Source of the DNA: Amphiscolops sp. MND2022
Lineage: Eukaryota
DNA length: 64,000 nt
Reading direction: 5' to 3'
Assembly: GCA_964187785.1 (NCBI GenBank)
Contig: OZ076409.1
Coordinates: forward strand, 48,052,001 to 48,116,000
In this document: positions 1,005 to 38,389 of the stretch, piece after piece
Numbering within the stretch: the stretch's first letter is position 1
How the letters are laid out: every line of letters begins with the position of its first letter
Made by a program: the position numbers and the translations under genes
Notes under the pieces: generated by a model
Seen by the model: the letters and a program-made list of their open reading frames with translations, nothing else
Told to the model about the DNA's origin: nothing
The model's database searches: none

Positions 1005-1035
1005 CTAAAAAAGCAAAATTTCCTAACTTCTGTTT

Positions 1036-1671
1036 TCAATTTTTTAACAACCCTTTTAATTTTCCGCCCATATTCCATATGGGAATGTCATGAACGTTAC
1101 CGATGGACGGTCTACCTAATCGGTATCCATCATGTTGTTCATTTCTACAGTCAGCTTTAGCGTTTGGAATTCGCTTTTCCTCGGCATTTGCTTCCGCTCT
1201 CTCAACTGGGACTTCCCATCCCCTTCTGGTCTCTCGGCCCGATCCGGCCATTATGACATTCTGTATCTGAGGCAATACTTGACTGCTGATAGCCTCATTA
1301 ATGGCCCTTTGGATCTGCGTCCCAACATTATTCATCATTTCATCCATCTCACGGGATATCCTAGAGTTCAATTCGCTAGACAACCTATTTATCTCAGCTA
1401 GTGAGTTTGCTTCAACTGAGTTTTGGCCAAAATCGGCACTTGTCCTAGGTTCATCATTTCTGCAATTAGAAAATAGGCTTTCGCCCTCGTTGTCCAAGTT
1501 ATTACTTATGACACTTTCTCTCCTCCCAACGGAGTTATTGTCTAAACTCCTTTCTCTTTCAGTTCCATTGTAACGATCGCCTCCTAACATTATGTCTAGA
1601 TTTTCGATATCAGAAAGGATCTCTAGTCCTCTGGACTTTCTAGTCTTCTTTTGTTTTCTTGTAGTAGGCAT
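1036..1671 (-). CDS. 3'-LTR copy of the Gag N-terminus (195 aa) fused to 16 codons of flanking host intron
   Basis: Nearly identical to the first 195 aa of gag 14152-15864; diverges exactly at the LTR boundary 1086. Confidence 0.7.
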   Translation of the reverse strand: MPTTRKQKKTRKSRGLEILSDIENLDIMLGGDRYNGTERERSLDNNSVGRRESVISNNLDNEGESLFSNCRNDEPRTSADFGQNSVEANSLAEINRLSSELNSRISREMDEMMNNVGTQIQRAINEAISSQVLPQIQNVIMAGSGRETRRGWEVPVERAEANAEEKRIPNAKADCRNEQHDGYRLGRPSIGNVHDIPIWNMGGKLKGLLKN

Positions 1672-2795
1672 AAGGAAACTTCGAGTATAAAATTAAATTA
1701 GATTATATCTCGAAAATAACAGTGAAACCGTTTGTACTAATATGATAGTCTTTTTCAGAAGAGAGCAAATAAGGAAGTGTCTCCTCTCTCAAAGGCACGG
1801 GTATTTATACCCCCGAAAGAGTGACACTCTCATTCCTTACATTCTTTGACTAAGACAATACCATATGACTGCATTTTTGATGGTCACAGGATGAACGCTA
1901 TCCATTTCAAATATTATACATCAAAGGGACAATCATTCAACCGTTAGCACCGTTTACATATTTGGCAAAATATTTTCATTGAACAGGTATTTGTTGATGT
2001 AGGTGCACATACTTTAGCACGTGACGGCACAACAAATATGTTTAGTCTAAATACCTTTCATGGGTACAATGACAAAAGGCCTGATAAGGCAATAATATCA
2101 AATTTCATGCAACAGCTATTTTAGAACAAAATTGGATAACTATCCGTTAATGGTACAACAAAACATCAATTAACACTTCAGATTAGTACTTCATGATCAA
2201 CTAAATATCATTATATGAAATTAGCATCAATCACAAGTGCTTTGTTTATGGCAGACTGAATAGTCGAATTAAGCCGTCTGCCTGAACGGCATTAATAGCA
2301 CTTTCATCCGGTTTGTACAAAGGCCGTAATCGGCAAAAGAGAATAAAGCACACGAAAATGAAGGCCTCTGATTGGCTAATTGAGTGAGCGCAAGTGACGC
2401 TAGCAAGAAAATACAGGAGTCCATTTGAACTCGTTTCCGTATTTTCTTTAAGTTGCTTACCATAATCTTTGATTATTATTACATCGCATTGACAATACAA
2501 CAGCACAACACAATCTATGTTAACAGACTAATATACACTTAACATTCAGGACTAAGGTCGATCATAAACAATCAATAAGTGCAATAATTCTAAGTTTTGG
2601 TGATAAGCGAATACGTCCCGGTACGGCCCTTTTGGCTTTTTCTAAAATAATACGGCAACAAAACACATGAGCAATGTAAAAGTTTAAGAGATAGTTTTAG
2701 TTTACTTTAATAGATAGGGAGAGTTCCTGGGGCCACATCCTGACCAACAGCCGTTGTTGTAATCCTTGTGCCGTCACAGGCGGCAGCCTGCGACA
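1086..2795 (-). repeat. 3' LTR of copy 1 (1710 bp)
   Basis: Matches 15279-16987 with about a dozen substitutions and one 1-bp indel (by eye); element-strand termini TGTCG...TGACA. Confidence 0.96.
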
Positions 2796-3477
2796 CAGCG
2801 GGTGTAATGAAAAGAAGACTGCCTGCATTAAGACCATTGATGTAGGCTTCTTTCCTGAGAGCTGTTATGTAAGCGGGTTCGCTCCTTGGAGTTGAGACTT
2901 CCATGTATTTGTTTATCTTTATGGATTTTATTTCATCCACAGATTTTCCACAAACCATACAGCTTGTGCTCCTTTGGGAGCTGATATCAGTGTAAGGCAA
3001 CGCATTTTGTATGTGGAAAGAAGCATGGAATCCGCTATTTTCGGGTTGTATCACCGGCGTATCCATAGACGGCCCTCTCTCATGAGCGGGGGGCGAAAGC
3101 GGTGACTCTAACACAGGCAGAATCGTCTTGCATAATTCTATCCTCCTCTTCGTGTTGCCTCAAGACGGAGCATAGCATAGTTTCTCGTCGAAGTAGGTTT
3201 TGTCCAACTTCGGTGTGGTTTGCACGTCTGAAGGCACAGAGCTAGGACCAGGTTCATCGCTTGCCGTCGTCATTCTTCTGCCGGCTATTGGAATTGGCTC
3301 AGCTCGGACTTGAGTTTCAATCCTCCTCACCATCTCTTCTGTGTCCGTAGACCAGTCTGAGTCCCATCCGTCAGAGGTTTCTTCATCACTGCTGATGTAG
3401 ATTACAGAGTCTCCCGATGAGTCAGAACTGAACTCCAAAGAACCAAAGAGTTTTCTCGCTTTATTAAATCTTTCCAT
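2707..3477 (-). CDS. Accessory ORF (~256 codons, one in-frame TGA at 3160-3162): acidic SIM-like motif, SPLSPP, CxxCGKS; C-terminus lies inside the 3' LTR
   Basis: ORFs 3160-3477 and 2707-3114 are in the same frame and joined by open codons GNTKRRIELCKTILP; homologues at 32570-33515 and 63532-64000. Confidence 0.8.
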
Positions 3478-4419
3478 TATTAGTTTTTTCGCAATTTTGG
3501 AGCTAATGAGGCGACTGATTGTTGTATGAATAGAGGTAGAATGAATTCACTGAAATTCCGTGGAATGCCGAGTTAGGACAATTTCCCGGGTTCCCCGTTC
3601 GGCGGCAAATACTTAGGTTAATCGTCCCGATTCGTCGTAAACTTTCCCGAATGGCTTTTCCAGCGGCATTCCTTCTTTGAATTTCAGGTGTCGGCCTACT
3701 CACCATCATCCTCTTAAGTGGTAGCGAGATGAGTTTTCAAGTCGATATCAACAAATAACTTCACTTCAAGTGGGTAATTAACGGGTTGTTTGCCGGTAGT
3801 TAACGACTCGCGTTACCTAGTTTTCTCAAAATGGCTCCAGCCAATCAGGAACTCTCGTTGATGAAATAAAAAATGAATAGATAAATGAATAAATAAAATG
3901 GCGAAAATCATAACTGGAGTAACCCAAAATGGCGAAATTCTAATCAGGAGTAACTGGGATAACGGAACAAAACAACAAAACAAAATAAGGTAAATGGTCA
4001 TAACCGGCCACTAACTAAAATCAAGTTGTAACTAACGAATGTTCTCTGTACATTTCGCTGGCAGACTCCATGTACAATTTTAAATATGTAAATAATCATA
4101 GAATATTAGTCTGGTAAATCTCTTCAGCCACGAACTCCAACTTTTCATTCTCAATAATTACATTAACCAATTCCTCTGACATCTGTATTTGTTAAATTCA
4201 TATCATTCATACTTGTATTCCTGCTGCTACATACATCCATATCCGTTCCCGGCTCCGTTATTGTCTCGTCTTTCTACGAGGACATCTTGTGCTTCCCTTT
4301 CTCTCAGCCGTACCCGGCCTGACTACACTACTCCTATCAGCTGGGTCCAAATAGTTACCTTGGTGACAGCGGCTCAAAAGGAACATGTCTTCAAATTCAG
4401 GTTGGTCTGGATTTTCATT

Positions 4420-4556
4420 ATTGAACTAGTTTAGCTTGATCAGGGCTAGACTATGTTCATATCAGCTTCCTGTTTCCAATAGCAAACACGTGATAACATG
4501 TTTCCGTTCAAATTTTCAAATCACTTCCGGAAGGTTTCTAACGCGGTAAATGGATT
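4420..4556 (+). promoter_or_regulatory. Putative internal promoter block upstream of the antisense gene, with a palindromic ETS-like ACTTCCGGAAG
   Basis: TTGAACTAG, AGCTTGATCAGGGCT, CTTCCTGT and ACTTCCGGAAG are conserved in order at 34448-34572 in the diverged copy 2. Confidence 0.6.
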
Positions 4557-7500
4557 TCTTTCAAGGAAGCTCACCGCCTACGTTCATCTCTTTCTGTTTA
4601 GAAAATCAGAATGAAGATGATCAACAAGTACCAGCCAACACCGAGGAAGGCATACCTGCTCAACTCAACCAAGTGTCGACCCAGATTGTCCTTTCAGAGA
4701 GTGCGCCAATCTCGGCCCTTTCTCCTCCTTCTTTCCACCCGACACGGAACTTATTCTCTCAGGTTCAGACTGCTGTTGATTCCCCTTTCAGCACTGACAG
4801 CAACGTAGATGTGACGGCCTATGCTACTGAAATGGTGCAACGAATGGAGGCGGCTCGAACAGCCTCAGAAGATATAACAAGTCAGGCTGCTACAGTATTC
4901 CCCAAGGCAACGGGAAATGCAGATGATTTAACCCCCAGTCCACCCACAGATCCTAGGAGGACCAGTACACCAAAATCTGGCAACCAACACCCAACTGAAT
5001 CTTCAAATCTGTCTCAGCTTGAAATGAATTTGAAGATTGTTGAGACCACAGAGACTGGGTTCCCTGAGTTACAGCCCACAACAAATGCTTTGAAGGAGAA
5101 TGCCGGGGCTTCCTTATTTCAGGCTGAGGAAGATTCCTCCTCGACCTTCAGCGGACCTCCTCCACTTCCTGGAAAACCGGCCCAATCAACCAGTTGTGGA
5201 AGTGACATTGATACTCCAGGGGAAATGTCTGGGCTGGACAACCTCCCTCCTCTCTATGGAGTTGTCCCAGGCTACTCTGAGCTCGAATCTGAAAAAGGTA
5301 CCGAAACGGAACTAGAAGAATGCCTCAACAACCAGCCTGGGACATCCAGAATGACCCTTGAAGAGCCATTGAGAGAACTATCAGGGCGCAGTCGGGCTAT
5401 CCTGAAGCAGTATTTTGAGGCGGAAAACGCATACACCTTCCCAGTGGGTCACAGAACTGTAGCTTTCACTGAGCCACAGATATACCATCTGTTGCGTGTT
5501 TTAACAGACGAGGCCATTAATATGACTTGCTCCACTATGGAAAGAATGGTCATCGGAGCCGTAAAGGGGACACCAGCCACTGCTCCTTCAAGGACAAAAC
5601 ATTTCCTAACCCGGACACGTGTCCAGACTCCCAAGCCTATGCAGTCAGGAAATTCAAGCTCCGAGGAAGCCATAACCGACCCCGGACAAGATTCAGAATC
5701 TCATGGAGATTTTAGTGCACTGTTTGAGGTAGGGGACATTTCTATGCCGGAAGACAGCGATAGTTCAGGTGAGATGGCTCTGATAGCTGACACTTTAAGA
5801 AAGTCGGCCTTCGATAGTGCCGGAATTGGCTAAAAGCCACACCTACACTCCAGTTCAGCAGTAGAAGGAATTGAGTCGACAGGTCACAGTAGTTTGGACG
5901 CCACGCTATCTGAACTGAGGGACCAACCCATGTCACAAAAATCATCATTGAAGAAGCCCTGCAAAAAGGTGGTTCGACCCAAAAGAGCTTCAAGGCGAGG
6001 GGTGCCCATGCGAGAGGAATTCTTCTCGAAAATCGGCTGGACACGATCGTTTATTTCAGGTCCAGCAGATCCACTGCACAACCCGCACATGGTTTGGTGC
6101 CACATGTGCAAAAAGAATTTCTCAATAAAGACAAAAGGAGTAGTCGAGATCCTGAGGCACCACATGACAGAAAGGCATCTGCGCCGGGACCAGCGTTGGC
6201 GCTATGAACATCTTAAGAGCGTGGACCCTGTCACAGGCAAAATTCATCATAGAGTTAGAGGTAGGAACGGGAAGATCCTCAGCAAGGCGGAACTAGCTCA
6301 AGAATTACCAAATTTCATCCACACTGAACTTATTGATGTAGGAGAAAGATTTCCGTTTTATGAGGACTATCTCAGAGGAAACACAGCTGCACTGGTAACT
6401 CCCCAATCCCGGGATAGGACCCAAATTCACCTCATCGGAGATTTCAACCAGAGACAGGGAGACATTGCTGTGCTCCGAAATTTGTGGTCACGAGTTGGGT
6501 CTTTCACTGAATACCAGGCTGCTTTCCGTGATTTCGATTGGAGTGAAGACAGAATAATGGTAAGCATATTTTGTTCGTCCTGACTCATTGTCGGTATACG
6601 CAGATACACTCATACTTATATATGTAAATATTTAGGCCTTGTGCGTGTATATAGGCGTTGGACTTACGGATAACATTTGTATTGCCCATTTTAGGCCATA
6701 TTCCAGCACATTTTCAATTGTGTCATGGAAGATATTGCCGAACATGTCACTTCTTCTCAACACTACTCCATTGAATTTGAAGACAGAGGGGCAAATCGAC
6801 TGATGTCCCTGCGCTTCTGGAAAGGAACAAAGCTGTGCAGAGTTTTTATTTGCCGAAGTGCACTACCCGCGTCTGAACTCTCAGGAGAATTTGGATCCTT
6901 GTCCCGGCTATTATCAGTAGTGTCGACCGGTCCGGATATGGTCGCTTGTTCAGGTTGTCCCGTGGACTTCATTCGGACTATTGATCACCACTCCTCCTAC
7001 TCTTACGGAATCCAAAGCTGCTTCCGCTTTGAATTGCTCGACCTGCAACTACTGATGCACAAATTCACCTACAGCGTGTTTGGGAGGATCGACATGTTCT
7101 CTGTACTCCAGTGTCTCTTAGTCTCCCTTGGGGGGTCTACCACCGAAGACTGGGTCCGAGGAACTCCCGAATTAACTTGTGTTAGTATCTCTTGTTTTAC
7201 TGCTGTAGGAGGATAGAAAGGTATGGGTGGCAGTCAAGGTATACGATCTGTCTCTTAAAATCATGCTTTATTTAGGCTATTACCACTTGCAAGCTGGAAG
7301 TGGACAGGCTCCCTGATTTGTGTCGAGATCTACTTAAGCGATGGAAGCAAATCCTCCGCTATCTTTCACTCCACTCCCGACTTCAAGAAAACCAAGGAGT
7401 ACACAACAAGGTCCAGAGCTTTGAGTGGTCCTTGATTTCCGATGACTTCTTCGCCGTCCGACTGGAGTTTTTTCAACGGCTCGTCAGTGACTGTAAGTAT

Positions 7501-8726
7501 ACAGCTCTCTTGAGTATTTCTGTCATATGTCCGGGCTTGAGTATTTTGGTTTTGTGTTTTCAGACGTCTCGAGTTTTGTCACCAACCTTGCACGCAGGCG
7601 GGATGCTACCTTCCATCTTTGCGGGGAGGTCTGCAGGTTCATAAGCCGACTCTGCTTCCGCGTATACCAGCCTGACACCGTCCCCCTTGAAAGCGCCTGG
7701 TTCCATCTCCTAGATTTCATGGTCAGCGACGGAAAGTTCTTGGAGGATGGCGAATTTCTCATAAGGCTCAACATGACGAATAAAGTTACTGCCTCAAGCA
7801 ACTTGAAAGCCGCTGGACTGCACTTCAATAAGAAGTCAAGTAAGGCAGCCATTGACAAAACGGCTGAGACGGCCAAAGCTGATTTCGCCAACAGTGCAAA
7901 GAAGTACATTGAGTACCTCCTGGGAGCTGTTCTGCAACATCCGGGTCTCAGTTCGGACCCCATTAAGGGATTAGCAGCCTTCGACCCTTATATCATGATG
8001 AAGAGACCAACCGAAGTGGCCCTTCGTCATTTTGGCATTTTATGTTCAACTTTCCAATTGCGCTCTTGGGTTACAGCAGCGAATGAGGCTCTATGCCGGG
8101 ACCAGTATCTAGCCTTACTGGACTATCTTCGGACAAACCATGGTTCTGGCCCTAGTCTTGCCTTAGAGTCGTTGGACCTAATAGACTTTCTCATGGGGCT
8201 TGAATTCCTCCAATCGAACGAGCTTATCTTCCATCTCTTCAAGTTATGTTGTTTGTGTCTTACGTCAGTCAGCCCTCAGTATCCAAGTGTGTTCATGGGA
8301 AATATAGATACTACTGATTTCCAGTCTCGAGTAGCGGACGTAATCCTGCCCTGTCAGAGCTATCTGTCTGAGGTCACCGATTCCTTAGCTCTCTGTTGTA
8401 CAGAGGCCAGTCTTGACAAGTTCTACCTCCTTTCTGCTTCATTTGGCCAGTCTGGGTTCTCTGCCGATTACGATCCTTGGACTTATGTGGATACCTTCGG
8501 CCGCTCAGTTATTTACAAGTCTCTCGTTTCTTCTCATCGTTCTGTTTCCTCGGGGACGGAAGTACGTTCTAAATGTGCAGTGGCAGCCGATACTTCCTCC
8601 GTCAAAGATGTGCCAGCTGTCCAATTGCCTAGTGACCGTAAACGAAGGCGAATGGATAAAAGCCAATCCCGTTCGAGGTCCTCCTCTGTAGTGATGGAAC
8701 CCACAACTAGCAGCTCTAAATCTTAA
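4550..8726 (+). CDS. Antisense 4-exon gene (~1291 codons): disordered N-terminus, BED-type zinc finger, degenerate hAT-transposase-like body; one in-frame TAA at 5831-5833
   Basis: Exons 4550-6559, 6695-7180, 7276-7492 and 7564-8726. Donors GTAAGC/GTTAGT/GTAAGT and acceptors TTTTAG/TTTAG/TTTCAG (phases 0,0,1) join the listed ORFs in frame. CHMC-x17-HHMTERH finger at 6098-6178. Confidence 0.85.
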
Positions 8727-8966
8727 TTGTGCATATGTATGTATGTACAATCAAACTGTTAACCTTGTCATTTTCTGTTTTGTTGATTTGTCTATATTAT
8801 TCGTTTCTTTCTCTTGCTTTCCTTGATCCCGTATTTATTCTTTTGTAAGCGATTACCTTTGAGTCCCGTTATTTATTCAAAGATACCGTTGTTTGGGACT
8901 AGAAAAAAAACAAAGAAAAGAGAGATATGATTCAGGGCTTGTTTCCTGAACTGAACTCAATTTTCT

Positions 8967-11900
8967 CTAGTATCTGAAGTCTTCTGAGTAGTTTGGGTTG
9001 GGGTTAGGCCTGAGATTATATTTCCCTCCTCTAGGGCTCAGACTTTCATTTCTAGCATCATTCTCCGATATTTCGGGCACGATAATATCATCCCCCCTAT
9101 TTGGAGAGATGTTTGCATCATTTTCATTCAACGAATTTCTCTCTGAAAAAATTTCATCATTTTTCGGTCCACTTGCCGTACTCGGTAAAGATTTTTCTTG
9201 GTTTTTCGGGGAAACGGCCGGATTCGGCCAATCAGATTTGTTATTTTCTGTCACTGCAGTAGCTTCATTTCTTTTAGTGACGTCATCATCTAAGCGTTCA
9301 TTCCGGTTGTGTGCCGCGTTGTCGTTGTTTAATTCTTCTCGCGTGATTATGTAATCCGCTTCATTCTCGTCTACGTCATTTGTATTCGTTTCTGCCGCGT
9401 TCGGCTGTTCGGCATTCGGTAAGCTAGTCGGAATAGGCGCACTGCCTCGTGTGATTAGCTGCTCGCCAAAGTCGGTTTCCCACGTTATGATATATAAATC
9501 ATCTTGCGGAATGATAATTTCTTCGTCTGGCTGCAACTGTTGTTCTCGGAAATTGTCCTCAAGCGGTTGATTAGGGACAAACCTTTTAAGGCGAATGCGA
9601 TGTAAAATTTGAGTTTTGTTCGTATTAATTCGTCGCACTATATAATTTTCATTTGGCAAGACTTTTTGGACTACGAATGGTCCAACCCAACGGTAATCAC
9701 GGAATGGGATTTTTGCTCCTTGATTGTCCGCTTTCGGCTGTAAGACAAAACAGTATTCTTTCTCCTTTAATGGAGCGGCTTTTGCTTTGCGGTCGTAATA
9801 TTCTTTGTACTTGATATACGACTGCATTATGTTCTGCTTCGTTTTGTCAATCAAGATTTTTGTCCGATTTTGGATCTCTTCAGCAAATTCGGTTGTGGGA
9901 TTGATCTGCTCGTTTGGATTATTTCCAAGCTTGTGATCCAGAATATTGTGAGGAATTCTGCCATGGAATACCCTTGTTGGCTCACAACCGATGCTGGCAT
10001 GATAACTGGTATTATAATTAAGTACTGCTAATGGCAAGTATTTGTGCCATTGTCGGCGGTATTCCCCACATGCCATTTTGAGATTTGTCTTTAATGAGGC
10101 ATGGGTCCGCTCTAATTTGCCAATTGTTTGCGGATGCTTTGTTGTTGCACATTTGAGTGTGATGCCCAAAATCTGCGTAACCTCCGCAATAATCGTAGAA
10201 GTGAATGCAGTACCCTTATCAGTAATAAGAGTTGTTGGTAGATATGCATGCTTGGTCATTATGTCAATGAGCGCTTTTGCCACATTGATTGCTGATGCGT
10301 CCGTAAGAGGGTAAGCGAACAAATATCTGGAGAAAACATCAATTGCTGTTAGATCGTTTTCATACCCTCCACTTGGGGGAAGATTCGGCAATAGGTCAAT
10401 TTGCATGGCGTCTTCAGGTCCAAGGTCCCATTCGGGCAAATTGAGCAGCTCAGGTGTGATCGTTGCGTTATGGACTCTTTTGTCTCTGGCACATTGTTCG
10501 CACCCTTCTACCCACTTTTTGACGTGTTTAGCCATGCTAGGGTAGTAATACCTCTGTCTAATTTACTGCAACATTTTGGAAATCCCGGGATGTTTATGCG
10601 CTGTTCCGTGAAGGGACTGAAGCAATTCCCGAAGTAGGTGTTGCGGGAGCAAAATTTGATGGTATTTAACATTCCCTGTTTCATCAAAATATTGCCTCGT
10701 CAGGATTTCGTCCTTGAGTACAATTCGTTCCAGATTATTTGCATAGTGTCTATATCGGGTATCCTGTTGCAGTATGTTTTCTGAATAGTCTTCATGAAGG
10801 AGCTTTGCCTTCAATTGTTGCAATACTGCATCTTTGGACTGCTCGATGATTATCTGGTTTGTTTTCTTGAATCGGACTTGAATGTCTGGTTGTTGTTTGA
10901 CCAGATTGGTTGACAGAGTTTGTATGGTAACAGTGGGCTCATCAGTCATTGGATTTTTCCTGATTGTTTCTTTTCTTGCCCAATACTGTTCCTCTGTCTC
11001 GTCGTCATCATTCGTATAGAATATTTGTTCTTCCTGTGATACCCCCGCAGATTGGACATTTATCTCAATGGGTAGAGTTTGCACGTCCTCACGGATTTTC
11101 ATGATTAATTTATCCTTCGGATCTGCCTCCAATCGGGACAAATAGTCAGCTGCTGTGTTCTGTGCCCCCGGGATATGCGCTATGACAAAATTGAACTGAA
11201 TCACATAATCACATGCATTCCACAGGGCTGGGGGTATTATTTTCGTTTGAAAAAATCTCGTCACAGCTTTGTTGTCTGTGAGGATAATGACCGGTTTGGG
11301 CGCACCCCAGAATATATGCCCAAATTCTTTGAATGCAAAATAAATTGCAAGAAACTCTTTGGCATATATTGACATCTTGATTTGGGCTGGGGTGAAGGTT
11401 TTTGAGCCATATGCCACGGGTGCATAGGATTTTCGGAGAGATGTGAATTTCTGGTTCGGATCGTCTTCTATTAAGACCGCATATCCAGCTGCACCAAAAC
11501 TTGCGTCAGTCATTAGTGCTATCTGTTTGTTCGGGATAGGTTGTTGTAGGGCCAAGTCGCAACATTTGTCTAGCGCCCTATTGATTTCTTCGAATTGTTG
11601 GACTAATTCTTTCGATACTAGGACTTTTTCGTCACTTTTGAGCATCTTGTAGAATGGAGCAAGGCGTTCGGAGAGTCTTGGGACATAATTCCTGTAATAG
11701 TTTAGGAATCCCAAATAGCGCTGTAAAGCCTTTTTCGACTTTGGGAATTTGGTCTTTTCCAGAAAGTTTTGCACGTTCTGTTTCTGAGGTTTGACGCCTT
11801 GTGGGGTAATAGTCCGTCCGAGAAAATCAATTTCTTTTGCACCGAAGTGACATTTGTGCATTGTCAACTTAAGGCCTGCTTCCTGAATGCATTTGAACGT

Positions 11901-14161
11901 GGCTCTCAGGTTCGTCATGAGGTGATAAACATCATTGGCTGCGATGCCGATATCGTCCACATACTGGGCACACTGATCCGCTTTAATGACTTTGTCGAGG
12001 TATTCTCTCATGAAACTCGAGAATGCGGATAGTGACCGACTAAGGCCTTGTGCCAAGCGTCTGTAAGCGAATGTGCGACTGGCAAAATTGAAAGCCAACA
12101 TTTCGATTGAACGTTGGTCAGCCATTGGTAGGCAGTGGTATGCCTGCGAACAGTCTAATTTACAGAACAGTTTTTTGCCTGCCAAGTGTTGGGCAGCATC
12201 AACTAGTGTACTGACGGGATGATTGTTGTTGATATAATCATCTGAGATGAGGTTGTTGATTTTTCTCAAGTCAACCAAGAGTCGGAGTTTCCCGTTCGGT
12301 TTCTTCTGTGCAAATATTGGGCTCGCATATTTCGAGAACGGTAGGGTGGTGATGATGCCATATTTGTGTAACATGGCTAATTCGACTAGGATGTCCTCCT
12401 TCAGATTGATAGGAGCTGGAAGGCTTTGACTATAGGCTGGGGAATCGTCCTTAGGTGTCAGTTTCACTTTGAATTCCTCGTTCATGCCTATATCAAATCG
12501 GTGTCGTGCAAAGATGTCATGGAATTCCACTAGCAAGTCCTCAATTTTCTCCTTCTCTTCAGGAGTAAGGGTGGAATCTTTCCAGTCAAAGTTTTCTAAG
12601 AATTTTGCACGCGATTCTGCATCTGTGGTGGGGTCGAGTGTCTCCAGGTCCTGTAAGGCCTGTAACTCGCGTAGGATTCGTTTTTGTATAGGTGTGTGTT
12701 CCTCAGGATTTCCAGGGTTTTCTGGAGTTGGGAACCAATAATTTTCGGAGTTTTGTGGATTTCTATTGGTTTTGATGAGACTGCTGACATAATGGGCTGC
12801 TTGCTCCTGGTCATTCTGCAAAAGGTGCCAGGTTGATGCCGGATCTACCGGTTTGACATACTTCATCTGTTCTGGCGTCATGACAGAAAAATTGGCAATA
12901 TGTAGTCCCTTTTTGAGTTTATAAGGGTGGTCTGTGAAATTGTTCACTGGTATCAATATATTGCCATCATTCAGAGTGACCAAAGCTGGGCAAAATGTGA
13001 TGTCGCCTTCCTCATGTAGGAGGTCGCTCGGTTGCAAAAATCCAGTGACAGCATTCTCAGGGTAGAGTAGGGAATTGGTCCTAATTAGGACTTTGTCATT
13101 TGGTGGAATTGTTATCTCAATAGGGTTGAGAATTGGTTCTAATACATTTGAATACTTATGGTCAGCCGTTTTAAGCTGCATTGAAAAGAACGGGAAATTC
13201 AGTATCCCTTGTCTCATGTCCAGCACTGTATGGTTTCTTTGAAGGAACATTAGTCCAATGATCGGTCCTGTCAAAAGATTTCATGGAACTCAATGTCACC
13301 AACTTCGAATTTGAGCTCTATGGTACTCTTAGGAGTTTCCAGTTGCCCATTAGCGACCATGATTTGGAAGTTCGGAGGGGGACCTTCTCGGATAACAGAT
13401 TGTGGAGATAGAAGGCGGATTTTCCGGAGGTCCATTTCAGGGATTGCACTGGAGAGTGCTCCGGTGTCTATTAATCCATCAATGGTCAATTCCCCAAAGT
13501 CCATTGGGAAATAAAGCATGCGTTTTTTGCATTTGAGGTCGATGTTGGTTGACAGGGGTATACAGTCTGGTTCACCTTCTCTGGTGATAAGTACGTTCTG
13601 GAATTGTTTTTCGTCTAGCAATGATTGTGGCGTGGTTTCACCACTGTTTTCAGGATTCTCGGTCCCCAGTGGGTTTGGGAACACTGGGTGGTTTGTACCA
13701 TCATTCATTTGCCAGTTTTCAATTAGCGCTCGTGTTTTCTTGTTATGGGTAATTGGAGGATTCTCGTGGACTGTTCTGTTGTAATGGTCAATATCGTCCA
13801 GGACATATTGAAATTGCAGTGAATGTTGGTTGTAAAGCTCGGTGTCCCAATAGGGATCTCTGCCGTAGTCTGGATCGATGTATGTTGGATTGTAATCATC
13901 GATTAGGGGAATAGGCCTGAACCGGGTAGTAAAGGTGGTGGTGTAATCAGGGTCCCAAACAGGAATTGGTTTCTGGAATAAATGGGTGTTATTGTAGGTG
14001 ATGATGGTAGCTTTTTCCATCTGCTGCTGCCAGACAACAGAGGGGTAGCCCATCAATTGCTGATTGTATTGGTGGAAGGTTTGCGTTGGGGGGTCCGATC
14101 TGATGTATTGTCGGACAGATATCAGTTCGTTGTATTGGAGTCGTGGCGAAATTAGTTTTTT
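8967..14161 (-). pseudogene. pol: pol polyprotein: protease (DTGA), dUTPase-like spacer, RT (YVDD), RNase H (TDAS), integrase (HHCC, DDE, GPF) with acidic tail
   Basis: Motifs seen in ORFs 13271-14056, 10563-13274 and 8967-10535. Broken by a short frameshifting deletion near 13274 (copy 2 retains IVMEKLTGP) and a TAA at 10563-10565. Confidence 0.95.
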
Positions 14162-15864
14162 GACTCATCATTAGAAGATGAGGATTGTGAGTTTGAAGAT
14201 GTTGACTTGTTTTGCGGTTTCTGCGCTTTTGAATTGGGCTTACCGTCATTGGCATCATCTGGTCTGGTGCGTTTGGGTTTGAGATGTGCACCAGCGCCTT
14301 GCCAGCATCTTTCTTCCGGGTGGTTCTTTTTACCACAAGTGCCACACTCCGGATACGTCTTTTTCTGAGTCTGTTTGCCTTGTTGGGCATCTTTTTCCTT
14401 TTTCTTCTTCAATTTTTCACAGTCTTTGACCATATGGCCCTTCTCCTTGCAATAGTTGCAAGTGATGTCCGACATTTGCCCAGTAGTTAGAGGAGTCTTG
14501 GATTTTGTTGTCGAGGAGGTCATTGTGGCCATTGGTAGGTCGTCTGATTCCTCTAGGGCATTTAGTTCTAACTCTCTCTCTAAATGAGCAACTATTTCGT
14601 CATAAGAGCCATTTTCGAGTCTGGCCATGTTTATAGACCGCTTCAGTTTTGGTGGCAGTTTTGCGTAGAGCAAACTGTCAATCATTTTTTGCGCGTGATC
14701 CCCGAATGCTTTTTCTGCCCCTTGATTTAATTCTTCAAGGAAATCTGGCAGTTTCATCGTGTTGGGATCAAAGACCAGACGGTGCCATTTATGTTTGGCA
14801 GTCGCTTGTGATTCGGGCTTGACGTATTTTCGTCTGAATATGACCAATACGTCCTCTAAAGTCTGTCTATTACTCGAGCTGATGTTCCGGAAGGTTTGGA
14901 GAGCATTCTTCCTCAGCAATGAGTGGAAGTGATTTATTTTCATCTGTTCCGTCATTTCCGGTTGCATCTTGATCATCGTATGGAACAGGTCCTCAAACAG
15001 TTCGAATTTTTCACTCTTGCCGTCAAAAGTCATTGTGTTGGAATTGACTGGGCGTATAGTGAGTTGTTGGGCTGTCGGCCTATTCTGCATCGTTGTCAAG
15101 ACATCTGCCAGTCGAGTAATAGGGTCGGTTTGAGCAGCCGGAGCATTTCTCTCTTGCGCTGGGATCGTCGTGTCAAGGTTGATGTCCTCATAGGACCTGT
15201 CGAGATGGTTTCTGGATGAGACTCGTCCCGTGAGAAACTCGGGAACTTGAAGTGGAGATTCGTTGTCTCCTGTCACCATGTCATGAACGTTACCGATGGA
15301 CGGTCTACCTAATCGGTATCCATCATGTTGTTCATTTCTACAGTCAGCTTTAGCGTTTGGAATTCGCTGTTCCTCGGCATTTGCTTCCGCTCTCTCAACT
15401 GGGACTTCCCATCCCCTTCTGGTCTCTCGGCCCGATCCGGCCATTATGACATTCTGTATCTGAGGCAATACTTGACTGCTGATAGCCTCATTAATGGCCC
15501 TTTGGATCTGCGTCCCAACATTATTCATCATTTCATCCATCTCACGGGATATCCTAGAGTTCAATTCGCTAGACAACCTATTTATCTCAGCTAGTGAGTT
15601 TGCTTCAACTGAGTTTTGGCCAAAATCGGCACTTGTCCTAGGTTCATCATTTCTGCAATTAGAAAATAGGCTTTCGCCCTCGTTGTCCAAGTTATTACTT
15701 ATGACACTTTCTCTCCTCCCAACGGAGTTATTGTCTAAACTCCTTTCTCCTTCAGTTCCATTGTAACGATCGCCTCCTAACATTATGTCTAGATTTTCGA
15801 TATCAGAAAGGATCTCTAGTCCTCTGGACTTTCTAGTCTTCTTTTGTTTTCTTGTAGTAGGCAT
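14152..15864 (-). CDS. gag: Gag, 570 aa, with two CCHC zinc knuckles; first 195 codons lie inside the 5' LTR
   Basis: CNYCKEKGHMVKDC and CGTCGKKNHPEERC knuckles; ORF directly precedes pol. Confidence 0.93.
   Translation of the reverse strand: MPTTRKQKKTRKSRGLEILSDIENLDIMLGGDRYNGTEGERSLDNNSVGRRESVISNNLDNEGESLFSNCRNDEPRTSADFGQNSVEANSLAEINRLSSELNSRISREMDEMMNNVGTQIQRAINEAISSQVLPQIQNVIMAGSGRETRRGWEVPVERAEANAEEQRIPNAKADCRNEQHDGYRLGRPSIGNVHDMVTGDNESPLQVPEFLTGRVSSRNHLDRSYEDINLDTTIPAQERNAPAAQTDPITRLADVLTTMQNRPTAQQLTIRPVNSNTMTFDGKSEKFELFEDLFHTMIKMQPEMTEQMKINHFHSLLRKNALQTFRNISSSNRQTLEDVLVIFRRKYVKPESQATAKHKWHRLVFDPNTMKLPDFLEELNQGAEKAFGDHAQKMIDSLLYAKLPPKLKRSINMARLENGSYDEIVAHLERELELNALEESDDLPMATMTSSTTKSKTPLTTGQMSDITCNYCKEKGHMVKDCEKLKKKKEKDAQQGKQTQKKTYPECGTCGKKNHPEERCWQGAGAHLKPKRTRPDDANDGKPNSKAQKPQNKSTSSNSQSSSSNDESKN
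14155..14161 (-). other. -1 ribosomal frameshift slippery site A AAA AAC at the gag stop
   Basis: The -1 frame (KLISPRLQYNELISVRQYIRSDPP...) is open into the protease ORF; AAAAAAC-TAA is conserved in copy 2 at 45471-45480. Confidence 0.85.
15267..15278 (-). other. Primer-binding site TGGTGACAGGAG (tRNA-Leu-like)
   Basis: Immediately follows the LTR-terminal CA; identical 12-mer in copy 2 (45941-45952); resembles the tRNA-Leu PBS TGGTGTCAGGAG. Confidence 0.8.
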
Positions 15865-16987
15865 AAGGAAACTTCGAGTATAAAATTAAATTAGATTATA
15901 TCTCGAAAATAACAGTGAAACCGTTTGTACTAATATGATAGTCTTTTTCAGAAGAGAGCAAATTAAGAAGTGTCTCCTCTCTCAAAGGCACGGGTATTTA
16001 TACCCCCGAAAGAGTGACACTCTCATTCCTTACATTCTTTGACTAAGACAATATCATATGACTGCATTTTTGATGGTCACAGGATGAACGCTATCCATTT
16101 CAAATATTATACATCAAAGGGACAATCTTTCAACCGTTAGCACCGTTTACATATTTGGCAAAATATTTTCATTGAACAGGTATTTGTTGATGTAGGTGCA
16201 CATACTTTAGCACGTGACGGCACAACAAATATGTTTAGTCTAAATACCTTTCATGGGTACAATGACAAAAGGCCTGATAAGGCAATAATATCAAATTTCA
16301 TGCAACAGCTATTTTAGAACAAAATTGGATAACTATCCGTTAATGGTACAACAAAACATCAATTAACACTTCAGATTAGTACTTCATGATCAACTAAATA
16401 TCATTATATGAAATTAGCATCAATCACAAGTGCTTTGTTTATGGCAGACTGAATAGTCGAATTAAGTCGTCTGCCTGAACGGCATTAATAGCACTTCATC
16501 CGGTTTGTACAAAGGCCGTAATCGGCAAAAGAGAATAAAGCACACGAAAATGAAGGCCTCTGATTGGCTAATTGAGTGAGCGCAAGTGACGCTAGCAAGA
16601 AAATACAGGAGTCCATTTGATCTCGTTTCCGTATTTTCTTTAAGTTGCTTACCATAATCTTTGATTATTATTACATCGCATTGATAATACAACAGCACAA
16701 CACAATCTATGTTAACAGACTAATATACACTTAACATTCAGGACTAAGGTCGATCATAAATAATCAATAAGTGCAATAATTCTAAGTTTTGGTGATAAGG
16801 GAATACGTCCCGGTACGGCCCTTTTGGCTTTTTCTAAAATAATACGGCAACAAAACACATGAGCAATGTAAAAGTTTAAGAGAAAGTTTTAGTTTACTTT
16901 AATAGATAGGGAGAGTTCCTGGGGCCACATCCTGACCAACAGCCGTTGTTGTAATCCTTGTGCCGTCACAGGCGGCAGCCTGCGACA
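15279..16987 (-). repeat. 5' LTR of copy 1 (1709 bp)
   Basis: Direct repeat of 1086-2795; followed by the PBS on the element strand. Confidence 0.96.
15995..16002 (-). promoter_or_regulatory. Candidate LTR TATA box TATAAATA (also at 1802-1809)
   Basis: About 130 nt upstream of the gag ATG and flanked by GC-rich bases. Confidence 0.5.
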
Positions 16988-17089
16988 GGGAACGAAAAAT
17001 ATTTAAATCAAACGGTGTTTTTTAAGTAAAATTTGGCATGTTTAAATTTAAGAGAGTCACCCAGAGAATTCAACTCACATAAATTTTTT

Positions 17090-31150: not shown

Positions 31151-32640
31151 TGTAAGGACTACGGTTATCTGTGTATCTCAGATCACATGCAGATTTGGAG
31201 TCCTTTCCTTCTTTGCTATTCTAGTTTTCAACCAAGTTGTCCTTCCTCTCTTCTCCTGACTATTAGGGGACGAGCTAGCCTCAGTGTCCCTATTTCCTGA
31301 TGATGACATTGAACTCAGGATAGTACATATTTCTGGAATGACTCTATCGGATATAGCTGAAATTGTGGCCCTGTTAATCTGAGCATGTACCATAGACATC
31401 ATGAAATCCATTTCTTGAGAAAGTCTCAAGTTGACTTCATTGATGAAAATTTCTCATGATACCAAAATACCCTCATGTCTATGAACATTGTTTTCAAAAT
31501 TTTGGCGCCGGAATTCAATTGTTAGGGGAAAATCTTCCCTTGGAGGTAAAGAAACTCAGTGTCGCTTTGAACAGATGATTCCCCGATTGCACTAGCTAGT
31601 TCTCTCTCAATTGGATTGATGTTGTCACTTCCCACCATTATGTCTAGTTATCAAAGTCAGACATCATGTACATCTCTCTAGATCTCCTAGCTTTTGCTTT
31701 TGTCACCTCGTAGAAGGCAAAAGAAATGGCTACAAGGAAAGAAGCAATTCGAGTCTTTCTTTTATGAAACAAAATTGCTATCGACTGTATAACTGAACAA
31801 TGGATAGATTCAACGAATTGTGTCGGGACTCAAGGTCCCAGGTATTATCATATACATTCTTGCATGACTAGCAACTTTACTGAAGTCCTAATCTTAAAAT
31901 AGCCTGAAGGGCTTTCTGAAAGTAGCAGTGACTATTTTTTAGAATCAATGACGTCATGTTTATAGGTTGACGTCAAAGCAACTGCACGCCGACACAGAAG
32001 ATTAAAGGACTTGGAGGCATACCTAATATACATATATCCCTTAAGGACAAGCAACTATACAAACGAATAACACTTCATAGAATTTTGCATGTAATTATTT
32101 AATACATGAAAAATAGTATGTGACTATCAAGCTTCTGCAGTTTTTAACACAACTCCTGTATTAGCCATGTCATCTGGTATATATAGCCTACGGTTTAACT
32201 ATAGTGTGATATTTAATAAACAGCGCCTTTAATATAAATTGGGACTGGACTTGTCTTGAGTACCACGCTTGCTAAGATGAATGGCCTTACTTGGCCTTTA
32301 ATTCAATAAAGTTCAGCATTAATAAATGAACGCCTCTGATTGGCTAAAACATGAATTAGACGTGTTGTCCGCGGCGACAGGCAAGGAAACATTTGAACAC
32401 GTTTCCTTTGCATGTACGCCTTGGTGTCCAATTATCTTTACATACAACAGTGATAAAATACCACCACATTCAACTTACATGTACTTTCGAAACATTGAAT
32501 TGATATCAATAAAATTTCAGATTCAAAGTTTGCAGTTTGATTTTGGACAGCATGTCCGATTTCCTTAATCTAGCGGAGGGTGGTATAGTGATTGCATGAG
32601 ATGGAAGACCAGTTCTCAACGCTTGCGGCAGCCTGTGACA
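31151..32640 (-). repeat. 3' LTR of copy 2 (1490 bp)
   Basis: TGTAAGG...TGTGACA on the plus strand, matching 45953 onward; PPT-like AGGGGGAG next to it on the element strand (32641-32648). Confidence 0.85.
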
Positions 32641-33515
32641 CTCCCCCTGGCATGAGAAGAAACGTCCCTGCGGACATACCATCCAAGAAGGGTCTTCGTC
32701 TTGCTTCTTTTTCGGCTAAGGTCTCGTTTGGGTTTTTTGTTTTGTTTAGGTAGTCGTTGACTGCCTCTGACTAGATTTGATGGACTGATTTACCGCACAC
32801 CACACAGTCCGAACATTCATCAGAGCCGGAGTATCTGATACAACCATTTCATTAAAATCGTTTGAAATTAACTCTGAGACTGTATGAGTAGAGTAGTAAC
32901 TGCTAGGCGCGTTTGACCGGGTCTTCTATCTTCGATAGGAGGAGACAGCGGGGTATATACTTGAGGTCTTAAATTCCGACAGACATTAATAGGGTGGTTA
33001 TTTCTGACCCTTTCATCGCATGCTATTGCGCCGTTCCCACGACCGAGAATAAAAAACTTTTGATCTGAAGTGGGAAAAGGCTGTTCGTTAGGCCCCGGAG
33101 TACCGTTCCTCTTCTGTGCAGTAGTTGTCCCGATTGTCCATATAGTGACAGGATCAGCCAATTGCCATTGCATACATCTGGACAACACGTAAATGTCCTC
33201 TGATTCTTCATCTGACGAAGAGATCAATTCGTCTACTGAATCCGTACTAGAACAATCCATATGGTCGTCCTCATTGCTCGATAAGTAAAAAATTTTTGGC
33301 TCTGCATCAGATTGTGCGGCACCCACAAATTCCATTTGAAAAGTTTCGGATAAATTAGACATGAACCTCTCTCTTACTATCTTTTTAGCTTTTTTGGAAA
33401 ACGAATTTGTAGAGTAGGTTTTGAATTCCATGTTAAGGGTAGGCAGCCGAACAGTAAGACCAAAAATGAGTGATTGGTAATTTTCCTCGCTCGGATCCGC
33501 GAGAGATTCACCCAA
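32570..33515 (-). pseudogene. Accessory ORF homologue in copy 2
   Basis: IFYLSSNED, TPLSPP, CVVCGKSV and MPGGVSQAAA match VIYISSDEE, SPLSPP, CMVCGKSV and TPAVSQAAA of copy 1. Confidence 0.8.
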
Positions 33516-34559
33516 ATCCGTTTTTTTCCCGGGTTTTTACTTTCCCTTTTCAATCAAATATTCAACATCTTCGGCTTCGCTTTGATGGTAGCCGACCGCC
33601 TCATTAATGACACACATTAGCTTCCTTACTTCGTGAACGATGCAAGTATCCGTCAAGGACTTCACTCAGTGTTTACTTACACTCACTAATAACTTGAGAT
33701 TCTCAAGTAAATGAAGACATGGCTGAAGGCCACGCTGTCTCGCTTCTCTTGAGGCAGCCAGTAGGATCGATGTAAATTTTCTCCCTTTTCAAAATGACCG
33801 TCCAAGGATTAAAATCCATATAAGGAACAAATGAACATGGCCATGAAATGAAATAAAAATAAGCTAATGGTAAAAAAACAAAGCTATCGAAACATTTTAA
33901 TGTAGATATTTCTGGCAGATTCTCTCCACATGTCTCCATTAACATAGCGTAACTGTAACTTTGACATCAAACTGTATAGCCACGAACTCCAATTCTCGCT
34001 TTGACTTCTTGTCACATCATCAATTCAGCATTCCAAATCCTTACACTTTTTTCTTCACTGTATTATTCTTTCTTCTTTTGTATTATCCAGTATTTATTCG
34101 TGAGCAGTATTTATATAGCTTAGTATTCAGTCGACAGTTAGTCTTTATAGTTGTCTTATAGACGTTTTTCTCCATATTTTCCTCTTATATCGTCATATTG
34201 GGACGCTTCGTCCAAATACCCCGACTTCCGTAGATATCCCTGGTTTCCTCCGGATTGTCGACACTTTGGACGTTTGATACAGCTCATCTTCGGAATTTCT
34301 CCAGATCATCTCTCTTCCCGTGTGAACTACTACAGTCAGGCCTGCTTCCCTTTCCCTCACAGACCAGACTCGTCATTTGTTATCCTAAGCAATAGTTTTG
34401 TTCAAGTTAGACGCCCGTTGGGCTTTCTTGTGTTTAACTTTTTAAATTTGAACTAGAATAAGCTTGATCAGGGCTTTTCACTTTGTTCAAGTACTTCCTG
34501 TCCCAAAACACTAGTTTCCACTCGTGTTCAATTTTCTACTTCCGGAAGATTTTCAAACA

Positions 34560-37500
34560 TGGTAATTGGATTCTAATTCATTCTAAATTGGGTTCTAAAT
34601 TTGTCTACGGAGACAGAGCAGGACAGACGGGATGAGACAACTAGCGAAGTCAGGCATTTTCGGGGCAAAGTGGACTATTTCCAGACTGAAACCAGTGAAA
34701 TTGAGGATTTGTGTGATAGTGCCGGAGCTACACCCGCTCATAATAGCCTTACTCTCGTAGCTCCAGTATTAAGTGACATTCCTGATTTCGAGTGCCGATT
34801 CCCCGGGTCCTCTGAGGCCCACGAGTCCACTAATCTCTCTAATAACGCCCGACAGCCAGCAGATAGACAGCAACTCACTGCTTCTGAACGAGTGTTGTTG
34901 AGGAAACATTTCACTGAGAATGAGCCAGTCAAACTACCCATGCGTCATGCTACCCTCGCCTTCAGTGAACGACTGATACGATGAATCCATTTCTGTGAGC
35001 CATTTCCTCAGTGAAGCCATTTCCGTTGAGTCAGTTGCCATGTCCATGCGCACCATGAGGTCGTTGAAAACTGGAGCCATGAAAGCAGGAGCTTCACTAC
35101 ATAGCGAAGCTTCAGGATTTAGTCGAAGCAGGATTGGATATCCTGATAGCAGATAGTTCCACTGACGGAGCCGGACTGAGTAGGAACATCACGCATGGTT
35201 ACACCAGCGGAGCCCTCAGCTCTGATGATGATTTTGTGACGAGACAAACTGCTCAGGGCGCAGTACAGAGTTTGGATACGGCCCCGGTGCATGTCAGTCC
35301 CGCCACAGATACTTCCATGCGAACTGACAGTCCGCTTACTGGCTTGGTCCCTAGTTCGGGTTATTGTGCAGCCGACTATGAGCCTTTATCGCAGTTATGT
35401 CCACCGAGCCCCGAGAGCCCTGGTACACCACGATCAGCACGTAAGAGAAAGCGACTAGCGCTAGGAAGGGGGAAGTTCATGAAGGAAGCCTACTTCAAGG
35501 GCATCAAATGGACCAAAACCTTCGTCACAGGACCACTTGATCCTGGAAATAACAAGCATAAAGTCTACTGCCAGATATGCAAGACCAACGTGTCGAATTA
35601 CTCAAAAGGAGCCCGCAAAACAGTTAGACACTACCAGGCAGAATCACACTTGCGCAAAGATCAAAGATCAGCGCTGGAGAGATGAGCATCTCCGAAACGT
35701 GGACAAATAACTGTGCAGGTCAGACACGAAGTCCGAGGCAAGGATGGACAGGTACTGACACCACTGGAACACAAGACAGAAAAGTATCTTTTCGATCACA
35801 TTCGATTGGCGGAGATTGGAGATAAACATCCGTTTTACGACGACTATGTAGCTGGCCTCAATTCATCCATTGATGCGGAAGAGGTTCGTTCGTTTGCACA
35901 GATTTCCTTAATTGGCCACCTCGTCCCACGATGCGGAGATGTTCTTCTGCTCCAACCACTGTGGAATCAGCCAATCACCAGGGTCTCTTCCTTCCTTTCA
36001 GCTGGGGGGCCCCTACATTAACGGTTAATAATTTTAAATTCCTAGAGTTTTGTAGGCTAAATCCCATAATTTTCCTTTATCTAAGTTGTTTTTAGTTAGA
36101 CCATTTTCCATCTATTTTTCTTTTGTGGTATCAGGGACATCGCTCACCATGTTAACACTACTGGCAAACACTCGTTGGAATTTGAGCCAAAAGGTCTCTG
36201 TTGCATAGTCTCCATTCGTTCCTGGAAGGGAGATAACATTGCCATTGTCCAACTCCTACGCTACCGACTTGCCTGTGAACCTGCTGCTGGCATGCTGGCG
36301 GCCACATCTCGACTCTTGCCTTCTTGTCCACGCAGCCACATTTCGCCAGTGTGTCTCGATGTTCTCCAGACCTGATCCCAGTATTGGAGCGGGTACTTTG
36401 AGAAAAAGATACAATACCCGTTCCGGTTTGACGCTTTCTCCCTTCCCACAATGATGAATCAGCGCGGTGGGGATGCGTCTTTGTCGGGATAAACTTTTTC
36501 TCCCAACATCAATTCCTAATTACCTTCCTTGACGGCTGTCTGGGCCATGTCTGGGCCAATCAAACTCACGAACTGAATAAGGTGGTAAGTGGGGACATCA
36601 TTGAAGTGAGGGGACTAAGTCACCTATCGTTTGGGTCCTAATCAACGCTTTCGTGTAGGCTATCGATGCTGGCAAGATAGAAATCGTGACTATCCCTGAT
36701 AATTGTTCGGAACTTTTGGTCAATTAGCAGCCCATTCATGAGTATCTTACTAAAAATCGCTCCCAGTCAAGAAAATCAAGGGGTGAGGAATAGGCCTGAG
36801 AAACAGGAGTGGGCTATCATCGGAGACGAGTTCTTTCCCGTCAAACTAGTATTGTTTGGACGCATCCACTGTGATTGTTAGTTTTTTAATTTTCTTTTCT
36901 ATGTCTTTGGCAGTCGTTCTGTGATCTTTATTCTGCGTATACTACTATGCCACACTGACATACTTCTTGTCCCAAGACCCATGATGTTTATGTCTTTCTT
37001 TATACAGATACCAAGTGCTTCGAAGGCAGTTTATCAAACCGGAAAGACTCTGGGTTGATCACCTACAGAGAATTACACCAGCTTGTGCGGAGATTGTTTC
37101 ATCGGTCCCTTCTGCCCAAGCCTTGTCCCGAGGATTCAGGTTGTGCCGGTCTATGTGTCTTGCAAGGACAGACCTTAACTCAGCTTTGAACACGGACTTT
37201 TTCAACCAACTTAAGCTGAAGAGTGATTCCGAGAGGGGCCCGTCGCATCAAGAGTTCCAAAAGGGACATCAGTGAACAGCGAAGTAATCACCCTGATCTT
37301 GAATCGAACATGGATGGAGTTTGAGAGGAGTTTGTCGTCAAGGCAAGGAACTTCTTGGTTTTCCTTTTGGAGAGATTCCTTGGGGACATCAGCTTAAATG
37401 CAAATTTAGTCTGGGGTCTGAGTATCTTCGACCTTCTGAGCATCCCAACTGAACAAGCTGCAAAATGCTTCTCAGCTTTATATCATTCCTTTAACTTGCG

Positions 37501-38147
37501 AGGCTGGGTGTCCAATTCTCCAGACGCAGAGTCCGGGGACGAGTATCTAGAATTCTTCGACCAGTTTCGCAAGGCCTACGAGGATCTTCGAGATTCCCCA
37601 GAGGTCTTCACTGATATGATTTCGTTACTCACGCCCATGCCAGAACTGAGGAAGCGCAAGCATTTGTTCCATATCTTCAGTTGAGTTGCTTGTGTCTGAC
37701 GTCCAATGTGCCCAACTTGCCTCCTGTCACATTGCAGGGGTTGATAGGAGCTATCCTCGATGTCGGTTGACTGACGTAATCATACCTGCACAGTCTTACC
37801 TTACCAATGTTGCTGCTACAGTCACCTGTATGCACCGCTGAGGCCTGTTTAGACCAGTCCCGAGAACTCGAGTCTAGCTTCAGTAGCGGCAATGTCGCAG
37901 GCAATCCTTGGTCCGATGTGGACAGTTTCGGTAAAGCTAGCTTCGGGAAGGCACTGGATTGTCCGTCCACGAAACATTGAAGGCTAAACCTCCTCGAGTT
38001 GTCCGTTCTGTGACCTCCTCTGTTTCGAGTACCGAAGGGCGGCAGAGTAAACGATTGCCTGGGAAGAGTAAGAAAGGGGAAGTTTGGAGCCACTGCTTCC
38101 TCCGATATAACTGGAACTGTCGAGGATCCGCTCCAATGCTCGTCTAA
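34560..38147 (+). pseudogene. Antisense BED-finger/hAT-like gene homologue in copy 2 (frameshifted)
   Basis: MKEAYFKGIKWTKTFVTGPLDP...VYCQICKTN...RHYQAESHLRKDQR aligns with copy 1; introns at about 36024-36099, 36585-36658 and 36877-37008 are in equivalent positions. Confidence 0.85.
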
Positions 38148-38389
38148 AGACTAAATGTACATAGTGTACATTTATTCTGTAAACTTGTATCAGTTGTTCT
38201 TTTTTTTATTTACTATCATGTTTTGTTCATTTGTGTAGTAGGTCATCTTTCTCGGGCGTCTATTGTACTTTTCGTCTCTTTGTCCTATTGCTGACATTTT
38301 AATTTATATGTAATCCGAACAGTCCCACGAAAAAATACATGTCTGTTCATCAAGCAAATTGCGACATTAATTAATTTATTTTCTGGGCG

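Follow-up and report, generated by a model that had tools for sequence, protein, structure and literature searches.

Accessory genes of several kinds are known from complex retroviruses, among them the antisense gene HBZ of human T-cell leukaemia virus (HTLV), the genes served by the internal promoter of foamy viruses, and nef of human immunodeficiency virus (HIV), which overlaps U3. Here we describe an env-less Ty3/gypsy retrotransposon with long terminal repeats (LTRs) that is abundant and was recently active in Amphiscolops sp. MND2022; it occupies positions 1086-16987 of a 64,000-nt stretch of contig OZ076409.1, hereafter called the window. Like complex retroviruses and large animal Gypsy elements, it has accessory genes downstream of pol, including an antisense one and one that reaches into the 3′ LTR. 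Such Gypsy elements with extra open reading frames (ORFs) comprise Burro (PMC6431247) and those with bdelloid ORF3s (PMC5408684), and the cargo reported in the accessible parts of both papers is env-like or of esterase, exonuclease or apoptosis-domain type. In contrast, as far as these parts allow comparison, our element is env-less, has a single RNase H of Ty3 type and holds an antisense gene that is predicted to be spliced and likely derives from a transposase.

A further parallel is given by the plant Ty3/gypsy elements Retand, Grande and RIRE2, which possess antisense ORFs between pol and the 3′ LTR (PMC11963269; PMC7264820). Within the accessible text of these sources, common features are the long region between pol and the 3′ LTR, an antisense gene conserved in nearly all active copies, the lack of env and a proposed regulatory role. 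Retand-type ORFs encode TRP28 (PF04195) and, according to the same partial text, have no recognised transposable element origin (PMC11963269). In contrast, the antisense gene of the window element is interrupted by 3-4 introns, and its predicted product combines a BED-like finger with a hAT-like fold; no exon matched PF04195. The window element has a sense accessory gene in addition, which extends into the 3′ LTR. Transposase-derived regulators such as TnpA, VANC and FAR1/MUG have been described as well (bioRxiv 10.64898/2026.08.24.746577; PMC13547354). As in domesticated transposases, to the extent that these sources are accessible, catalytic residues are lost in the antisense protein; however, what retains it is a retrotransposon, neither a DNA transposon nor a host genome.

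Long-distance -1 frameshift elements spanning about 4 kb are known from Barley yellow dwarf virus (BYDV), red clover necrotic mosaic virus and RNA2 of pea enation mosaic virus (PEMV) (PMC5009743). The available part of that review describes how a stretch that follows the slippery site after a few bases is complementary to a distant downstream site, as we find it here. In these RNA viruses, the kissing partners are the bulge-loop of a local stem-loop and an apical loop at a distance of about 4 kb, whereas in our retrotransposon a predicted 13-bp helix over about 10 kb seems to be the stimulator itself. The slippery heptamer, a spacer within 5-9 nt and a conserved distant complement are all present. 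Our literature survey, covering mostly open-access texts without supplements, Repbase, Dfam or GyDB, revealed no such pairing in an LTR element and no LTR element whose antisense gene is spliced and derives from a hAT.

The antisense gene and its module

The initial annotation had described the order LTR with the start of gag, primer-binding site (PBS), gag, frameshift, pol, antisense gene, non-coding block, accessory ORF and LTR, and each part is found in its place in both copies of the window (Table 1). For the antisense gene, placement and orientation held; it proved to be not a single ORF but several exons separated by GT-AG introns. Boundaries of introns 1-3 (phases 0, 0, 1) occur at homologous positions in 22/22, 21/22 and 20/22 copies, exon 2 keeps its length in 20/22, and the introns are length-variable and gap-rich. 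The gene is thus spliced by prediction from its sequence, with 3-4 conserved introns, and its product is predicted at about 1,290 aa, a size estimate not taken from an assembled protein.

Among 45 resolved copies, 31 have and 14 lack a fourth intron, which lies at nt 135 of exon 3 (the survey covered 48 copies, of which 3 were unresolved, and 4 subgroup-C copies had unclean boundaries). Except for two copies with slight indels, the absences leave no residue. On a tree of 42 exon-2 proteins, from which 3 short rows were excluded, the intron state cannot be explained with fewer than two changes, and the same holds for every bootstrap tree. The simplest explanation of two exact losses is that spliced antisense mRNA was reverse-transcribed and recombined into the element. 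Introns would otherwise survive reverse transcription by virtue of the antisense orientation, since the genomic RNA would remain unspliced there.

The module was followed through the 1.07 Gb eukaryotic assembly in two samples. All 20 elements fetched by a match to the antisense zinc-finger exon lie within the same LTR family; 19 contain pol, and an internal deletion and a nested insertion were each seen once. In many of these elements the two LTRs are 99-100% identical. In an unbiased sample, 20 of 150 listed matches to reverse transcriptase (RT) and picked by RT alone, the antisense gene lies on the opposite strand in 19/20 loci and the accessory ORF, at least in part, in 20/20. Most copies consequently hold the module, the opposite of which would have spoken against the initial annotation. 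Across these loci, RT is 99% identical, the module only 29-96%. The ratio of nonsynonymous to synonymous differences (pN/pS) amounts to 0.01-0.11 for gag/pol and 0.12-0.60 for the antisense and accessory module, which is under purifying selection and evolves faster than gag/pol. The suggested conservation over diverged subfamilies is borne out, the module being stable and under selection in three diverged subgroups. Sliding identity delimits two reassorting units: the LTR with the gag N-terminus and the accessory ORF, and the antisense gene with its half of the block.

The predicted antisense protein resembles hAT transposases (Hermes; PDB 4D1Q, 8EDG) in that a BED-like finger is followed by a predicted RNase H core and this by a helical insertion, with all structural scores below threshold. 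Its CxxC...H...H finger is invariant and matches Pfam C2H2-type families to E 5e-4, zf-BED only at E 0.08. Hermes is the best Foldseek match of the RNase H-like fold of exon 2 and the best transposase match of both folds that follow the finger in hAT order. Unlike hATs, the protein has no sequence-level match, no DDE triad and a low-complexity, acidic N-terminus of about 450 aa; basic stretches resembling nuclear localisation signals (NLS) are present. Strand 1 ends in an invariant E and strand 4 in S-G-C, no Asp is conserved (catalytic positions were set by eye against hATs of the same genome), and exon 4 lacks the SxxxERxFS motif. No match was obtained in PDB sequence searches with exon profiles or with Foldseek for a low-confidence exon 4 model, and ESM Atlas gave no usable match for exon 4 or the accessory protein. 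A genome search for DUF4371 found nothing, though its controls scored nowhere either, and in a weak search no spliced homologue of 733-2,090 aa scored. Based on the structural models, a catalytically dead hAT transposase is the likely source of the antisense gene.

Of the gene-picked elements, 16/20 have an intact accessory ORF, whose last 90 nt or so lie within the 3′ LTR. Its protein belongs to no family recognisable with Pfam or ESM Atlas, but has an acidic N-terminus, a CxxC motif, a C-terminal VSxAxACDG motif and, in 13/14 aligned proteins, [VI]I[YC][IL]SS[DS][ED], which we take to be similar to a phospho-dependent SUMO-interacting motif. The element had been called env-less, and indeed neither the accessory nor the antisense protein contains a transmembrane-like stretch (Kyte-Doolittle 19-mer maxima 0.8-1.6 and, for the antisense exons, 0.2-1.8) and no Pfam env family is found. 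Between the two head-to-head genes, the non-coding block holds the palindrome CTTCCGGAAG at 4524, TGATCAAG at 4435 and an AAATGGC/CCAAT cluster at about 3830-3930. The conserved words are presumably ETS-, CCAAT- and YY1-like, and the block likely comprises divergent promoters for both genes. No subfamily-specific target motifs in tandem array were found in it.

Complementarity between the gag-pol junction and the block

The claimed gag-pol frameshift is likewise predicted here: A_AAA_AAC followed by a stop ends gag in all 20 junction-holding copies, and in 11 of them the -1 frame is open for at least 1,696 aa. Local structure 3′ of the heptamer is weak, without a strong local stem. The 13-nt arm GCCACGACTCCAA is complementary to the distal island TTGGAGTTCGTGGCT in the block, with the seventh island base bulged. 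The arm is invariant in 20/20 copies, compared with longest invariant runs of 5-8 nt in RT, RNase H, integrase or capsid. The island occurs in 22/22 aligned elements (with a single change, at the seventh base) and in 19/20 RT-picked loci, and it is the best duplex partner of the arm within 13 kb in 20/20 copies, by a margin of 1.5-5.8 kcal/mol. Such a complement was seen in 0/300 shuffles and for 22/6,884 gag-pol 13-mers.

Genome-wide, exact matches to the junction motif and the island are similarly numerous (2,289 and 2,053; reversed controls 0 and 1), which also speaks against a lack of the module in most copies. Among the first 100 junctions on contig C1, an island lies downstream of 65, in 51 cases at 9.5-10.5 kb (controls 3 and 0). 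Ten of the 35 junctions lacking such an island were fetched: four are deleted, interrupted or decayed, and six come from the third subgroup, in which the module is complete but the island differs. In five of the six it reads GGA[C]GTCGTGGC and in one TGGAG[G]TCGTGGC; pairing is kept, with top rank in 5/6. From these sequence comparisons, the pairing of arm and island is strongly predicted to be a long-range -1 frameshift stimulator.

Two other candidates were given up. A local hairpin 20 nt past the arm is not put forward, since its pairing is mixed and not homologous from one subgroup to the next. For the distal island as a second PBS, a tRNA-like pattern gave 1 match, which does not look like a tRNA.

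Element structure and neighbouring repeats

Table 1. Features of the element and of the second copy (window positions; aa, amino acids; PR, protease; IN, integrase)
Feature	Position	Strand	Remarks
3′ LTR	1086..2795	-	
Sense accessory ORF	2707..3477	-	239-279 aa in siblings; stop at 3160-3162 in window copy
Non-coding block	3478..4549		between head-to-head antisense and accessory genes; conserved islands, recombination breakpoint zone
Distal island TTGGAGTTCGTGGCT	4126..4140	-	13-bp complement of arm, one bulge, ~10 kb downstream
Antisense gene overall	4550-8726	+	opposite to element strand
Exon 1	4550..6559	+	long low-complexity acidic region, basic stretch, BED-like CxxC...H...H finger
Intron 1	6560..6694	+	GT-AG, phase 0
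Exon 2	6695..7180	+	486 nt; predicted RNase H-like fold without invariant Asp
Intron 2	7181..7275	+	GT-AG, phase 0
Exon 3	7276..7492	+	intron 4 site at nt 135, precisely empty in window copy
Intron 3	7493..7563	+	GT-AG, phase 1
Exon 4	7564..8726	+	helical region, weak alignment to Hermes 426-567, basic C-terminal tail
pol	8967..14164	-	PR-RT-RNase H-IN; frameshift near 13275 and stop at 10563 break window copy
Proximal arm GCCACGACTCCAA	14135..14147	-	13 nt, 7 nt 3′ of heptamer; invariant
Slippery heptamer A_AAA_AAC, then gag stop	14155..14161	-	predicted -1 frameshift into pol
gag	14152..15864	-	570 aa, CCHC knuckles
PBS TGGTGACAGGAG	15267..15278	-	inside gag; complement of host tRNA-Leu 3′ end
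5′ LTR	15279..16987	-	TG...CA; holds first 586 nt of gag
Second copy, older, subgroup B	about 31151..47163	-	identical gene order; slippery site and arm 45454-45480; distal island 33978-33992

The full-length element lies on the minus strand, its ends are placed exactly, and it is young: the LTRs of about 1.7 kb differ at 13 of 1,711 columns (99.2% identical). A target duplication of 5 bp, GGGAA, stands on either side (1081-1085 and 16988-16992). The assignment to Ty3/gypsy is based on TG...CA LTRs, the short target duplication, a tRNA PBS and the order protease, RT, RNase H, integrase. In Pfam terms, pol reads Asp_protease_2, RVT_1, RT_RNaseH/RT_RNaseH_2, Integrase_H2C2, rve and Integrase_p58_C; the RNase H is single and of Gypsy (Ty3) type, as is the integrase, and the RT-RNase H part is nearly equally similar to foamy Pol (2e-27) and Ty3 (6e-24). 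A beta-rich insert of about 150 aa without Pfam match separates protease from RT at 12800-13250; we assume its placement to resemble that of dUTPase-like inserts. The gag start codon within the 5′ LTR (15864) is found at 544-592 nt in 21/22 copies examined, and the gag frame runs through the PBS. The tRNA 3′ end complementary to the PBS has 956 matching sites in the genome, and one of four loci checked was called tRNA-Leu(CAG). A long tandem array of tRNA-Leu-like 3′ ends, spaced at about 296 nt, occurs at G000:C8:35.58-35.64 Mb.

The window copy is defective: besides the two lesions in pol, stops interrupt antisense exon 1 (5831-5833) and the accessory ORF. Sibling copies have open frames, with pol of up to 1,738 aa and exon 1 open over 670 aa. 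Subgroup B carries CCA[AG]GGGGAG before the 3′ LTR in 7/7 resolved copies. At 2796-2810 of the window and in subgroup-A copies, the sequence CCCGC[AT]G|TG at the 3′ LTR has 4-5 purines per 10 nt (11/11) and no purine tract for plus-strand priming.

The second copy is decayed (LTR identity 88.5%). It has about 1.5 kb extra between protease and RT (~42100-44650), probably a nested insertion, and its junction and island lie 11.5 kb apart. Elsewhere, L037/L038 and L059/L060 are tandem copies with a common LTR or back-to-back elements, with a second gag or accessory ORF past the LTR. At L034:3100-9900, another LTR-type element stands beside a deleted copy, and its ORFs match a Monjiviricetes fusion glycoprotein family (E 1.5e-12); judged by this match, the same genome also holds an env-bearing Gypsy-like family. 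Rfam gave no match at E<=1 over window 1000-17100. Viral contigs gave no match, and a metagenome scan returned 3 loci only, chance antisense matches in a bacterial gene. Two other repeats lie in the window: a foldback-like nested inverted repeat of about 9 kb (52032-61088; arms 80-94% complementary, centre of 79-nt tandem units near 57300) and a 1,473-nt unit duplicated head-to-tail at 98% identity (18591-21539).

Proposed mechanism, rival readings and significance

We propose, with a probability of roughly 0.6, that this env-less Ty3/gypsy element carries a fixed module consisting of a spliced antisense activator or anti-silencing factor derived from a dead hAT transposase, an accessory protein and an RNA pairing over 10 kb that stimulates frameshifting. 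Full-length RNA would yield Gag and, after a -1 shift, Gag-Pol, with pairing of block and arm as the stimulus for the shift. Starting 7 nt past the heptamer, the 13-bp duplex would take over the role of a local pseudoknot and stall the ribosome. Efficient Pol synthesis would then be possible only from full-length RNA still holding the module, tying the module to autonomy. By analogy with transposase-derived regulators, the hAT derivative is predicted to be a DNA-binding activator or anti-silencing factor; it would bind element DNA through its finger and activate or shield the element. Since the antisense gene swaps freely between LTR types, its target may be shared or lie within the block. More tentatively, one might speculate that a DNA transposase was domesticated as a spliced antisense trans-activator, that Pol is gated by the 10-kb helix in the promoter block, and that antisense or internal transcripts running across this block tune the Gag:Pol ratio. 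The element would then possess a regulatory circuit resembling that of complex retroviruses, but made from a different class of transposon.

Two points weigh against this proposal: there is no two-sided covariation, the arm being invariant and the distal changes being confined to changes and a shift of the bulge, and every structural score for hAT likeness is below threshold. The former would fit islands that are real, but serve circularisation, dimerisation, packaging or strand transfer, or are inverted double-stranded DNA binding sites, for example of the BED-like finger. The GCCACGA core is moreover conserved as primary sequence in all three subgroups, and without a purine tract in subgroup A replication signals may be unusual. 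However, the arm begins exactly 7 nt past the heptamer, the canonical spacing for -1 stimulators, local structure is weak, and variation of the distal site is restricted to the bulge. Each element contains one arm and one distal site at conserved places, without the repeated core that is usual for DNA-binding sites. We thus regard these other roles as unlikely, and frameshift stimulation as the preferred function of the pairing.

The low structural scores, together with the free reassortment of the antisense gene with LTR types, bear on its product. It may be functional without being an activator, acting in integration tethering, RNA binding or export, or damping, or its hAT likeness may reflect the shared RNase H fold only. 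Yet the three hAT-like segments are collinear, and the long acidic N-terminus with basic NLS-like stretches would suit a nuclear regulator; we hold such alternatives to be possible, if doubtful. Far less probable is an old nested hAT DNA transposon, a passenger without function for the retrotransposon. The hAT-like fold with its finger, the frequency of hATs in the genome and the faster evolution of the gene compared with pol would agree with it. However, no terminal inverted repeats of at least 60 nt, the length searched, flank the module in the window, the gene stays inside one LTR family in all gene-picked loci, and frames and splice sites are intact across subgroups at 30-45% protein identity. 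Above all, purifying selection at near-saturated synonymous divergence, with pN/pS far below 1 in the absence of catalytic residues, largely refutes the passenger.

If the proposed module is real, its frameshift stimulator would bridge about 10 kb and exceed the 4-kb case covered in the available part of the review (PMC5009743) more than twofold. It would likewise allow the antisense accessory gene of an LTR element to be traced to its origin, which the Retand papers do not settle, and a class I element would have domesticated a class II transposase. Thousands of young copies in three subgroups with swapped modules would then constitute a natural system to study transposon-encoded anti-silencing and intron loss by reverse transcription.

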